Origin: Escherichia coli
Lineage (GTDB): Bacteria; Pseudomonadota; Gammaproteobacteria; Enterobacterales; Enterobacteriaceae
Strand: one strand, 5' to 3'
NCBI RefSeq assembly: GCF_024502345.1
Contig: NZ_JALDNN010000001.1
DNA: 64,000 bases
The position numbers were made by a program, and so were the translations under genes. Positions 12,883 through 20,628 of this stretch are shown here, piece after piece. The notes beneath the pieces were generated by a model. That model was not told where the DNA came from. It made no database searches and was given only the letters and a program-made list of their open reading frames with translations. Within the stretch, counting starts at the first letter, position 1; every line of letters starts with the position of its first letter.

Positions 12883-14505
12883 TCAGCCTAGGGCCGCGCG
12901 TATCCGCTGCTTCCAGTCGAACACCCGGGCATGGTTGGCCCCAGATGAGCTTTCTTTCGGGTGATGCACAGAGTGCAAAGGCTCACAGTACTTCGCCATG
13001 GTGCCTGGCCAACGCAACGAGCCTTTCACTGTTCCCCTCAAGATCCTGTCTATGCATTTTCCTGCCTCAACACCTGCTTTGAAGCCCATGATCCGCGTTG
13101 ACATGGTCTTCCGGTTGTCTGAGGTATCTATTTCTAGAAGGTAGCGTTGATCGCCGTTTTGCAGCTTGAACCTTGCCAGCAGATAGCAGCGTGATTTTTC
13201 GTGATCAATCATGTGGTAGCTGCAACGTGGAACGGGCGGCAGAGGCCTCACTTCCAGTGCTACCAGCGCAACTCCAGACTCTTGGGTGATTTGTTCAAGA
13301 ATCTCTCGGAGCAGCGAGAAGCGATCTGCAAGCCGTTCATGCTCGTCCCCATCACCCTCTCCCTCACCCAATTGTTGGAATTCTCCTGACGCTATGCTGC
13401 CCTCGCTCACAGGATCAGCCACGCCGAAGAGTTGGCTTTCTCTGCTCGGGCATTGCTCGTCGTCGACCTTCTTGCCATGACCGTTGGCACGCTCCCCGTT
13501 GTAGGCGATCTTGGTGCGCAGCTGAGCATCAAACGTGACTCCCTCAACGGGCAGATGAATCAACCTCTGCTCCTTGGCAGCAGTCGGCTCTTCGTCAGCA
13601 TCCACCTCCAACTCTTTCGCTCCCGATGGCACGGATACACAGCCTGTGTTCTCTCCCCTGACGGGTAACTTGAGAGCAGGGTGATGGAAAAAAATATCAC
13701 CGCGATGGCTAAACCGGAGCCCCTGAAGCTTTTCGATCTCCCAGACCAGCAATTCGTTGCTTTCCGGATCAAAGGGGCCTCGCACATCCATGGTGGTACC
13801 CGCGAGGGAAGTGGGTGCCTGAAAGTCGAACTGCCACCTGGCATACGCCGACTCTTGCAGTACCCGCTCTTGCCTTTGATTGAGGCTTTGCCAGATTGAC
13901 TCGAAGGATCGCCTCACATCCTGATTCAGCAGCAGCCAACTGAAATGGTCTCTGTATCCCTTGATTTTGAGAAGCTGACTTGGGGCCCCCGTCTTCGGGG
14001 GCGTATGGATATGAACAACATCGCCCTCTCTGTAGATCGTGAAGGCCATGTCCAAGCCATTCGGTGCGAAGGCTGCACGAACGATGAAGGCTGCGTGGAA
14101 GAACATTTTTCGTGCCAGCTCGAATTTCGGCAGCCAGACGGTCAGACCATCGACCTCGAACACAAAGCATCGCTGTCCAGATATCTCAGGATTTGCAGCA
14201 AGCCTTCTGGCCAGACGTGGGCACTCACCCAACTGCCTTTCCCGCCAGGTATCTATTGCAGGAAGCACCACCGTCTTCTTGAAACCACTGGGACGATAAG
14301 GAGCCCCTTCTTCGCCAAGAAACTCGCGACCAACGGCCAAGACACACGACATCTCCTGTGCGAACCGCTGCAGCTGCAGCTGACCGTTACGCTCAAAGAG
14401 AGCCGCCAACTGCCACTGGGCCGCCGGAGTCTTGGCCCTGAAAAAATTTCCAACGGCCAGCAACCTGGATCCGTTCGGGATCTGACGAAATACTGTCCTA
14501 TTCAA
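12883..14505 (-). CDS. tnsE: TnsE-like target-selection protein
   Basis: 540 aa (Tn7 TnsE recalled as 538 aa). Recalled Tn7 TnsE motifs are mirrored: [12 protein letters not shown] (IPQLELARSLFL), [15 protein letters not shown] (LFSDQDVMDSYESIF), [19 protein letters not shown] (VLLEVDASDGVKMLSTKVL), [12 protein letters not shown] (RRGVVKSSLNWP). 8-nt overlap with tnsD. Confidence 0.75.
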
Positions 14506-16000
14506 TCCATCTTCCTATCAATCGAATGAACGCAGTGGTCAGTGGTGCCACCCTGCTTTTTTCCAATCCACAACGCTTTTCCAGCTCCCAGCGCCTAGAC
14601 GTTATGCCTGTCTGTACATCCTTCAGCATCGCTGCAGTCAGGCGACGGATCTGATACTCGCCGACGGACTCGGCATAGCGATCCAGGAAGGTGCAGCAAA
14701 GAGGCAATTGATCGAGACGGTGCTCGACTGATGCCCGATGGGGTAGCTGCTGCAGGAACCAGTTGCGACTCCTGCGCGGAAGGCCCAGGTCTTCTTCGCT
14801 ACCTCTACCAATCCGGATCAGCAGGCGCACCAACCTTATGTCACGCGCTCGCCAGTCGATGTGGCTGTTGTTGCCCTGTCGGCGCTGCCTGACCTGGTTC
14901 GCAACCATCAGCCAGTGTCGGTCATGACGATAGAGCCAGGCGTAACATGCCCCTGCTCCGTCTTGCCTGGCTGCCTTGGCTCCACCGTGATTAGCCAGTG
15001 CTTGCAGCCAAATGGCTCGGTACTGCTGCTTTTGCTCAAACTCAGCAGGGAGCAGCTGCACTGACCGCTCGGAGGCAAGGTCGACCTGGCGAGTCTTCGC
15101 CTCGCTGATCAGCTCGCCAGCATGCTGGCCAGGGCGCAGGCTGGTCCAGACGATCAGATGCTGCAGCGCACTGAATCCCTTGCGATGCTTCCTGAACATC
15201 GCCAACAGCCAAGGTGGAGGCTCTCCGGATGTCAGCAGACCGTTCGCAGCAAGCCAATCCCTTTGATGGGATGCCAGGATCTTCTCCCAGATGACTTCAG
15301 CCCTGACCTGCCGGCCTCGCCTGGCGCCGCACTCTGTAGCCAGGTACCGGTACAGGTTGGTCCAGCGTCCGTAGCCAGGCGATTGCACCTCTTCGAGCGC
15401 CAGCAGCTGCATAGCAGCCTTGGCGAGCCTGATAGCCTCTTCGCCCACGGGACTCACGCGAAGATCACGGGGCAGAAACAGTGGAGAGGCTGTATGAAAC
15501 TCGTGCCGCTGCGCTCGACGGAACGGGATAGGTGAGTTCAGGAGCTGACAGCCATGCTCGGGACAGGCATCTATCCCTTGAATCTGCCAGCTGCGCCGCC
15601 AGTAGGGTTCACCGTAGCGCGCAGCCATATCTTCAAAGCAGATCGGGCAGTAACGCAGCCAATCGGGCCACTTGACCAAGGCCGTCGAGGCCCCAGACAG
15701 ACCAATCGTCGGCCGGTCGGGAGCAAGCATGGCCTGAAAAAGATCGGTACGGCGCTCCGGCGGAATGAAAGGGGCATAGAGCGGGAACAGCGTGTGATTC
15801 AGGATCATGCCTTCCGCATCCAAGCCCGTGTTGTTCGCCAACGCAGTCAGGTGTGTGGGCAGATCGGTGATCGCGGCAACCTTGCTGTCACCGAAAAGCA
15901 TGTGCAGCAAGGTCTTGTGGCTGCCTATCCCCAGATGTACCCGGCACCGGGCAATACCGCTGTAAAGCAGTTCGTCCGGGTAGAGCCTGGGGAAGTACAT
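14498..16000 (-). CDS. tnsD: TnsD/TniQ-family target-site selector
   Basis: 500 aa. TniQ N-terminus FPRLYPDELLYSGIARC and zinc-finger-like CPICF...CPEHGC. Same position and size as Tn7 TnsD (recalled as 508 aa). Confidence 0.85.
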   Translation of the reverse strand: MYFPRLYPDELLYSGIARCRVHLGIGSHKTLLHMLFGDSKVAAITDLPTHLTALANNTGLDAEGMILNHTLFPLYAPFIPPERRTDLFQAMLAPDRPTIGLSGASTALVKWPDWLRYCPICFEDMAARYGEPYWRRSWQIQGIDACPEHGCQLLNSPIPFRRAQRHEFHTASPLFLPRDLRVSPVGEEAIRLAKAAMQLLALEEVQSPGYGRWTNLYRYLATECGARRGRQVRAEVIWEKILASHQRDWLAANGLLTSGEPPPWLLAMFRKHRKGFSALQHLIVWTSLRPGQHAGELISEAKTRQVDLASERSVQLLPAEFEQKQQYRAIWLQALANHGGAKAARQDGAGACYAWLYRHDRHWLMVANQVRQRRQGNNSHIDWRARDIRLVRLLIRIGRGSEEDLGLPRRSRNWFLQQLPHRASVEHRLDQLPLCCTFLDRYAESVGEYQIRRLTAAMLKDVQTGITSRRWELEKRCGLEKSRVAPLTTAFIRLIGRWIE

Positions 16001-16001
16001 G

Positions 16002-19692: not shown

Positions 19693-20506
19693 TGCTCAGC
19701 TCCTGATGCATTTGATGAGAGTTGGCAACCAGGTCTTTCGGCTTCAGCTCCCGGTAAGGAGTGTCAAGATCGAAAAGGAAACAGTGCCGGGCCAGCAACT
19801 GGCGTAGCCAATAGAGCGCCTGACCGGCCTCCAGCTGGCCGGAGGTATCCAGTCCTTGGGCAATAGCGGTCAGCTTCCGGTCTGGGTGACGCTGAAACTC
19901 GAGCAGAAACAGCTGCTGGTAATGGGCGAGATCGTCCTGAGCGATGTCGCCTTCAGCATGGGCAGGATAGAGCCATTGGATATTGGCAAATGCCACCTTG
20001 GATACCTCGCGCTCCGTAACGATGACCCAGGGAATACCTTTTTCCTGCCAGTAGCGCCTTTCAAGCTCAAGCCTCTCGATAACTTCAGGCTTCTGCAGGT
20101 CGGTACTGTACTTGGCCTGAATCGCGATGCTCGGGCGCTGAGGATCTTCGAAATCCACCAGAAAGTCGCTGGTCAGTACCTGCGGGGTACCCTTGTAACA
20201 ACCGTGGGGCAGGCCAAGCTCCTCGGCGATGCGCACCGTATCTTCGACCCGCATCGGAAACTGTTCACGGATATCGGTGACATGGGGAGACCGATCCAAG
20301 GTCAGGAAGATGGCCAGTTCAAGATCGGATAGAAGATGGTGTAAACGCCGGGTCTTGCTGCCAGGCAGGCGGTGGGAGCGACCCAGCGAGGACACGTCCC
20401 TTGTGTAGATGAACGGCTTGTAGTCTGATCCCTGGCCTTGACCACGCCCGTCCTTGAGCCTTCTATCGATCTGGGCCTGGGTCAGCCCCTTGAATGTTCC
20501 AGACAT
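19679..20506 (-). CDS. tnsA: TnsA endonuclease-like transposase subunit
   Basis: 275 aa. Colinear with recalled Tn7 TnsA: RRLKDGRGQGQGSDYKP, GRSHR, HHLLSDLELAIFL, DIREQFP, TSDFLVD, LELERRYWQEKGIPW. Confidence 0.95.
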   Translation of the reverse strand: MSGTFKGLTQAQIDRRLKDGRGQGQGSDYKPFIYTRDVSSLGRSHRLPGSKTRRLHHLLSDLELAIFLTLDRSPHVTDIREQFPMRVEDTVRIAEELGLPHGCYKGTPQVLTSDFLVDFEDPQRPSIAIQAKYSTDLQKPEVIERLELERRYWQEKGIPWVIVTEREVSKVAFANIQWLYPAHAEGDIAQDDLAHYQQLFLLEFQRHPDRKLTAIAQGLDTSGQLEAGQALYWLRQLLARHCFLFDLDTPYRELKPKDLVANSHQMHQELSSVAR

Positions 20507-20566
20507 GAGAAAGCCTGCCCCCGCTGTGTCGATGACCTCAACATAGCGGATGCAGGCTCAGAATGA

Positions 20567-20628
20567 AACTTTATTTATACGGATGATACTTTATTTATAC
20601 GGATGAACCTTTATTTGCATCCCACACA
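20567..20628 (-). repeat. Tn7-family right-end: terminal TGT(GT)GGG and three tandem 20-bp TnsB-binding-type repeats
   Basis: Minus strand reads TGTGGGATGCAAATAAAGGT TCATCCGTATAAATAAAGTA TCATCCGTATAAATAAAGTT TCATTC. The repeats have a 20-bp period (C at 20569/20589/20609). The terminus is at 20626 or 20628. Confidence 0.8.

Follow-up and report, generated by a model that had tools for sequence, protein, structure and literature searches.

A locus of heat resistance (LHR, also called tLST) that lies beside a set of Tn7-like transposition genes raises the question of whether the two belong to one element, and whether that element is still equipped to move. The case considered here comes from a stretch of 64,000 nucleotides of Escherichia coli DNA (contig NZ_JALDNN010000001.1 of assembly GCF_024502345.1), referred to at its full length as the window, for which an original prediction, made from the sequence before any database search, had proposed an apparently intact five-gene Tn7-family core that includes a TnsE homologue. 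The five protein families, their essential residues and their open reading frames (ORFs) are all confirmed, and we are close to certain that positions 1–20626 represent the right-hand two thirds of a cut-and-paste transposon of the Tn7 family, approximately 28–29 kb in length, that carries the LHR as its cargo.

The five transposition genes

The genes of the core all lie on the minus strand, in the order tnsA (19679–20506, 275 residues), tnsB (17605–19692, 695 residues from a GTG start), tnsC (16002–17612, 536 residues), tnsD (14498–16000, 500 residues) and tnsE (12883–14505, 540 residues from a TTG start). By homology with Tn7, TnsA would be the endonuclease subunit of a heteromeric transposase that cuts the 5′ ends, TnsB would be the DDE transposase subunit, which binds to the repeats at either end and carries out both cleavage and joining of the 3′ ends, and TnsC would be an AAA+ regulator standing between the target selectors and TnsAB; of the selectors themselves, TnsD would recognize the glmS attachment site in a sequence-specific manner and TnsE, the second selector, would direct the element to replicating or conjugating DNA. 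The ORF list bears out the predicted coordinates and sizes, as well as the tight coupling through overlaps of 14 nt (tnsA/tnsB), 8 nt (tnsB/tnsC) and 8 nt (tnsD/tnsE); the exception is the pair tnsC/tnsD, which had been described as abutting and which is in fact separated by a single nucleotide (16001). The two unusual start codons agree with the N-termini of homologues, which are conserved in the case of the 540-residue TnsE and also fit the 695-residue TnsB, while RefSeq additionally holds shorter forms of both proteins (526 residues for TnsE and 686 for TnsB).

Each protein falls into the family expected of it. The profile search that had been proposed as a check assigned all five ORFs, with every assigned Pfam model above its gathering score: TnsA to Tn7_TnsA-like_N (E = 2.7e-20) and Tn7_Tnp_TnsA_C (E = 2.1e-18), TnsB to Mu-transpos_C, TnsC to AAA_22 and TniB, TnsD to TniQ (E = 1e-29) and TnsD (E = 2.4e-20), and TnsE to TnsE_C (E = 5.5e-44, 150 bits). 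NCBIfam, on the other hand, gave no specific Tns model for any of the five, and its only matches were weak ones of TnsB to IS481 and ISNCY. In the Protein Data Bank the top match was in every case the corresponding Tn7 protein, namely 1f1z for TnsA (E = 1.9e-60), 7pik for TnsB (E = 2.1e-187, with residues 4–691 aligned), 7mbw for TnsC (E = 1.2e-122), 8glu for TnsD (E = 1.3e-46) and the C-terminal domain 5d16 for TnsE (E = 1.7e-10). The second proposed check, alignment with the proteins of Tn7, gave the same pairing, with identities over global alignments to the Tn7 of plasmid R721 of 41% (TnsA), 44.5% (TnsB), 42% (TnsC), 38% (TnsD) and 24% (TnsE). This copy of Tn7 also has the protein sizes that the prediction had given for comparison (273, 702, 555, 508 and 538 residues).

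The residues on which activity would depend are likewise in place, and each of the catalytic and ATPase motifs that had been called intact in TnsA, TnsB and TnsC was verified. The catalytic residues of TnsA are all kept (E63 in SDLE, D114 in DFLVD and K132 in QAK), the DDE motifs of TnsB are found as DATIAD at 272, ADKGE at 359 and DAKGIVE at 389, and TnsC has a Walker A motif (GCSGCGKT at 141), a Walker B motif (VLIIDE at 233) and a C-terminal stretch that aligns with the TnsA-binding tail of Tn7 TnsC. The zinc finger of TnsD, C118/C121/C146/H149, corresponds to C124/C127/C152/H155 of Tn7 TnsD, for which the CCCH motif has been defined (PMC2918618). There is no frameshift in any of the five genes and all known essential residues are kept, so the five tns genes of this copy are intact.

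Since TnsE is the most divergent of the five proteins, its assignment deserves a closer look. Residues 126–136 align with the segment PQLELARSLFL of Tn7 TnsE, and in a set of 13 homologues that includes the Tn7 protein (21–87% identity) the P, E, L, A, R and F of the motif P-x-x-ELAR-x-x-F are invariant. The ELAR-type motif of Tn7 TnsE was reportedly found by Parks et al. 2009 to bind the sliding clamp. The family to which the protein belongs comprises 88 database clusters (38–100% identity, mostly full-length) from Pseudomonas, Aeromonas, Halomonas and Shewanella, many of which NCBI already names TnsE. Judged by its 150-bit profile score and its invariant motif, the 540-residue ORF is a genuine TnsE, as had been predicted.

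The right end and the hairpin before tnsA

The right end of the element (20563–20626, minus strand) consists of the terminal hexamer TGTGGG (20621–20626) and three contiguous direct repeats at 20563–20622, which follow one another at 20-bp spacing, have the consensus ATAAATAAAGTnTCATCC and are of the putative TnsB-binding type. The terminus is placed at 20626, exactly 120 bp from the tnsA ATG, because most of the independent copies among the megablast matches listed stop matching there; a few continue for 1–3 bp, apparently through chance identity of the flanking DNA. The hexamer, the three repeats and the distance to tnsA had all been foreseen, while the end had been set at 20628 and has to be moved accordingly.

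A second feature of the end, located after the third repeat and ahead of the tnsA ATG, is an inverted repeat on the minus strand (20512–20558) with 21-nt arms at 20512–20532 and 20538–20558 and a 5-nt loop. Its predicted RNA fold has a free energy of −32.2 kcal/mol (z = −5.6) and ends 7 nt before the tnsA ATG. The architecture of the right end, that is, three repeats plus hairpin, is kept in an alignment of 19 relatives. In these relatives 90.5% of the cells at the ten outermost hairpin pairs are paired, versus 30–50% when the partners are slid, and compensatory cells number 21 versus 7.5 in shuffles. Tn7 has a counterpart, in which a hairpin and then TTTTGTT directly precede the tnsA ATG (4697–4732 of the Tn7 stretch compared).

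The hairpin also bears on the proposal that the segment 20541–20554 is a degenerate fourth TnsB-binding repeat. The segment does share CATCC with the 3′ part of the repeat consensus, and the right end of Tn7 has four sites; yet its distance from the third repeat is 13 bp instead of 20 bp, out of the 20-bp register, it is without the core AAATAAAG, and it falls within the 5′ arm of a hairpin (20538–20558) whose pairs covary in relatives, while Tn7 has the same kind of hairpin beyond its last site. A fourth repeat at this position is therefore very improbable, and the segment is better regarded as part of the hairpin.

As to what the hairpin does, Tn7 is reported to insert into the terminator of glmS, according to the title of Gay et al. 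1986 (cited in PMC2918618). Because of this, the hairpin may act as a replacement glmS terminator that stops read-through from outside the element, or it may fold back so as to block the ribosome-binding region, and hence translation, of read-through transcripts. The tail of the hairpin in the window is UUUCUC, which is no classical U-tract; relatives have UUUUU. A simple promoter and terminator scan of 20400–20750 found nothing.

Complete relatives and the insertion site

Both ends of the element can be seen in complete relatives. In a Klebsiella variicola plasmid it is 27,964 bp long and flanked by the duplication CCTTC; its left end begins TGTGGGATGCAAATAAAGT and has three dispersed repeats at 7–26, 152–171 and 207–226 from the terminus. 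E. coli G3/10 likewise has both ends, with the duplication CCAGT, and its tns region differs from that of the window at 3 of 7744 bases. A 97%-identical element in E. coli TC24 lies between glmS and lpf/pstS with the duplication AGCCC. Together with the window's own site, for which the duplication is CATTT, complete elements are thus surrounded by perfect 5-bp duplications at four sites. In G3/10 the element adjoins a 507-bp gene annotated "UvrD-helicase domain-containing protein", itself beside a gene for an ATP-dependent nuclease; this could be a defence gene pair interrupted by the insertion.

The window copy is at a site other than glmS, in an island that starts at a tRNA-Asp gene and carries an integrase. 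The right-hand target-site duplication CATTT occupies 20627–20631 and matches a CATTT that precedes the left end in E. coli NZ_LR536430, where the element has the same insertion site as in the window and the left end lies approximately 8.4 kb beyond the point that corresponds to the window start. In E. coli RX24 the target is uninterrupted and contains a single CATTT. Given the matching duplication and this empty site, the copy at the window site arose by a simple Tn7-type insertion.

The DNA to the right of the element shows features of its own. The tRNA-Asp gene at 30156–30232 is the far edge of the island, and beyond it a complete rRNA operon on the minus strand (38380–43611: 16S, tRNA-Ile, tRNA-Ala, 23S, 5S and tRNA-Asp) belongs to the ordinary E. 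coli chromosome. Closer to the element, 21908–24965 is a patchwork when compared with NZ_LR536430, from which it differs by four deletions of approximately 1.4, 2.4, 4.5 and 2.3 kb; these remove most of a cluster of type III restriction-modification, helicase and DUF4391 genes, and their junctions have overlaps of 2–5 nt. The first two junctions are also seen in comparison with E. coli ABWA45, whose compared stretch ends there. Either genuine decay or an artefact of assembly could account for the patchwork.

Target choice and spread

A scan for the TnsA protein in one genome per species returned 58 loci, and in 27 of these the right end faces a full-length glmS and the terminus of the element lies 24–25 bp after its stop codon. 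The loci at glmS include members of Pantoea, Aeromonas, Zobellella, Gallaecimonas, Pseudomonas, Stutzerimonas, Halomonas, Rhodocyclus and Pseudoalteromonas, and in E. coli TC24 the right end is 25 bp past the glmS stop codon. The window copy is among the minority at other sites. In a contig of Stutzerimonas marianensis (NZ_JALGRD010000014.1), two segments 24 kb apart, 26272–33096 and 50533–57357, are identical over 6825 bp; each contains glmS together with the right end and the first genes of the tns operon, tnsA and a portion of tnsB. Such an arrangement may reflect either a tandem duplication that took in both glmS and the element or an artefact of assembly.

DNA nearly identical to that of the element was found in 111 plasmid records (40 of them conjugative and 24 mobilizable). 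Among 5426 complete E. coli genomes 63 have it, with 50 of the places chromosomal and 30 on plasmids. By analogy with Tn7, this distribution over plasmids and islands fits a TnsE-type pathway, and we infer that the non-glmS insertion of the window copy used TnsE. There is another way to account for such insertions, which is that they are not directed by TnsE at all, being instead rare off-target products of TnsABC plus TnsD or the result of carriage by island or plasmid recombination, with TnsE having a different role, or none, in this subfamily. The identity of only 24% between this TnsE and that of Tn7 speaks for such a view, as does the position of the element within an integrase-bearing island that could itself move. 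Yet the clean 5-bp duplication at the window site and its empty counterpart show a simple insertion, so the element transposed into the site; TnsE is full-length, is conserved at 38–100% identity across its 88 clusters with the invariant ELAR motif kept, and many copies of the element reside on conjugative plasmids. We consider the alternative unlikely and retain TnsE-directed transposition as the probable reading for the non-glmS copies.

The heat-resistance cargo

The DNA to the left of tnsE, from 1 to 12882 on the minus strand, is the LHR, cut by the start of the window. Its genes are trx-GI, hdeD, yfdX2, yfdX1, sHSP20-GI, a truncated ftsH, cls, clpK and hsp20, after which come transposase fragments. 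The ClpK protein (7688–10597) scores 2152.9 bits on the NCBIfam model NF033606, for which the cut-off is 1900, and the profile scan of the cargo also recognizes two small heat-shock proteins, a truncated FtsH (the ftsH gene is truncated at 4897–6231) and cardiolipin synthase. The whole is collinear with the annotated heat-resistance locus of NZ_LR536430 at 99.8%. The element carries this locus between E. coli, Klebsiella, Salmonella and Pseudomonas; an assignment of the tns core to a sil/pco copper-silver island was considered and rejected, since the cargo is the heat-resistance locus in every record inspected. At the junction between cargo and tnsE, around 12040–12800, the RefSeq annotation of identical DNA lists short pieces of transposases and part of an ATP-binding protein, perhaps left over from an older mobile element.

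Position 1 of the window falls within the terminal part of an IS21-like element that has inserted into the cargo. From the comparison with NZ_LR536430, the left end of the window copy is expected approximately 8.4 kb before position 1, where CATTT should be followed by TGTGGGATGCAAATAAAGTTTCATCC.

A model for transposition and its weak points

If the homology with Tn7 extends to function, the parts described above would work together as follows. TnsB would bind the three right-end repeats and the three dispersed left-end repeats, and would cut and join the 3′ ends, while TnsA would cut the 5′ ends, with complete excision of the element as the outcome. The ATPase TnsC would activate TnsAB only once a selector has marked a target. 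Where the selector is TnsD, the mark would be the end of glmS, and the element would be placed 24–25 bp downstream with its right end toward glmS; where it is TnsE, replicating or conjugating DNA would be marked, and the element would thereby reach plasmids and other mobile DNA. The biochemical roles of the individual proteins, and the binding of the repeats by TnsB, are assigned by analogy with Tn7. On this model the window copy is probably still mobile.

Several findings weigh against an intact element of this kind in the window. The window starts inside the cargo, and the completeness of this copy is therefore not demonstrable from the window itself; when the terminal 19-mer and the repeat consensus were searched for across the window at up to three mismatches, the right end alone matched and no left end was found. 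TnsE is just 24% identical to its Tn7 namesake, and the putative target preference of the subfamily is taken from Tn7 by analogy; the right end has three repeats at 20 bp, versus four at 22 bp in Tn7, with TnsB as their presumed ligand. Finally, the tns genes are decayed in two strains that share the insertion site: E. coli ABWA45 has a deletion that fuses tnsC to tnsD and a broken tnsA (12232–16431 of the stretch compared), and in NZ_LR536430 tnsA is split by one indel (26797–27625 of the stretch compared). Because these same-site copies are decayed, the insertion may be an old one that was passed down, and not the result of recent activity in its host.

Taken further, some of these points would make the window copy an immobile remnant, with intact genes and a left end that has been lost or separated, so that the cargo could no longer be moved. 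There is precedent in pKL53-L, where no left end was found within 39 kb past tnsE and IS110 and Tn3 elements lie beyond the cargo, which marks that copy as truncated; the window, too, has no left end anywhere within it, an IS21-like element interrupts the cargo at its start, and the copies at the same site in two other strains are decaying. What makes a remnant quite unlikely is that NZ_LR536430, with the element at the same site, does have the left end approximately 8.4 kb past the window start, preceded by the matching CATTT, that an insertion sequence within the cargo is no bar to Tn7-type transposition, and that the five tns genes of the window copy are undamaged. The preferred reading thus remains a Tn7-family transposon of which the window holds the right-hand part.

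Significance

If the model is correct, a dual-pathway element would explain how the heat-resistance locus has spread between chromosomes and plasmids. The locus confers tolerance of heat, pressure and chlorine (clpK and others), and its presence on an intact transposon is relevant to food safety and hospital hygiene. An element that would be able to home to glmS in any Gammaproteobacterium and also to jump to plasmids supports the view of the locus as readily transmissible, and its defined ends would permit the construction of a mini-element with which mobility could be measured. The significance of these findings is mainly practical, and they carry little weight as a discovery.

Comparison with known systems

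The element is already known, annotated and ordinary. RefSeq names TnsA, a TnsD family protein and TnsE in records with 100%-identical DNA (e.g., E. coli G3/10 and pKL53-L). Almblad et al. 2021 (PMC8012707) described a Tn7-like transposon with heat-resistance genes, and a review of tLST notes that Tn7 elements flank it (PMC8290217). The LHR/tLST Tn7-like transposon of Pseudomonas aeruginosa CF39S and E. coli (PMC8012707; PMC8290217) is the same kind of element with the same cargo, from which the window copy differs by its non-glmS site in the tRNA-Asp island. Among open-access papers we found none in which the ends of the LHR/tLST element, its duplications or its homing to glmS are defined. 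It is possible, though we advance it only tentatively, that something mildly new lies in seeing the heat-resistance locus as cargo of a Tn7 relative that is fully functional in both of its targeting pathways and has defined ends (the left one spanning 226 bp), duplications of 5 bp and homing to glmS, together with a covarying hairpin before tnsA that is kept in all close relatives, including Tn7.

With Tn6022-type and CRISPR-associated Tn7-like transposons the window element has in common a core of TnsA, TnsB and TnsC plus a selector of the TniQ family, whereas target selection there relies on TnsF or Cas effectors, or the attachment site is a different one (comM). The tnsE of Tn6022 is remote and highly divergent (PMC10293859); in the window, as in Tn7, tnsE closes a single tnsABCDE operon, and such operons have been described in close relatives of Tn7 (PMC10293859).

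The features that define the Tn7 family are found in this element almost throughout: a heteromeric transposase of TnsA and TnsB, a TnsC with Walker motifs and tail, a TnsD with a CCCH finger, and a TnsE encoded in the same operon. The ends have the terminal TGT...ACA and putative TnsB-binding repeats, contiguous on the right and dispersed on the left (the left being seen in relatives only), with 5-bp duplications at four sites, and insertion that is specific in site and orientation at glmS is found in TC24 and in 27 genomes of other species, while the window copy is elsewhere. The comparison with Tn7 itself, in the form carried by R721, is correspondingly close. The two elements share the gene order tnsABCDE and the 14-nt overlap of tnsA and tnsB, all five homologous proteins with their essential residues, the terminal TGTGGG and the 5-bp duplication, the asymmetry of the ends (the repeats are contiguous on the right, and on the left there are three, dispersed), the glmS site with the right end proximal approximately 25 bp past the stop codon, and a hairpin just before tnsA. 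They differ in that their proteins are 24–44.5% identical, in that the right end of Tn7 has four 22-bp repeats, on our reading of its sequence, versus three 20-bp repeats with the consensus ATAAATAAAGTnTCATCC here, and in their cargo, which is a class 2 integron with dfrA1-sat2-aadA1 in Tn7 and the heat and stress resistance locus in the window. Overall, as far as sequence comparison can tell, the window element is a close relative of Tn7 with tnsE as the last gene of a single operon.

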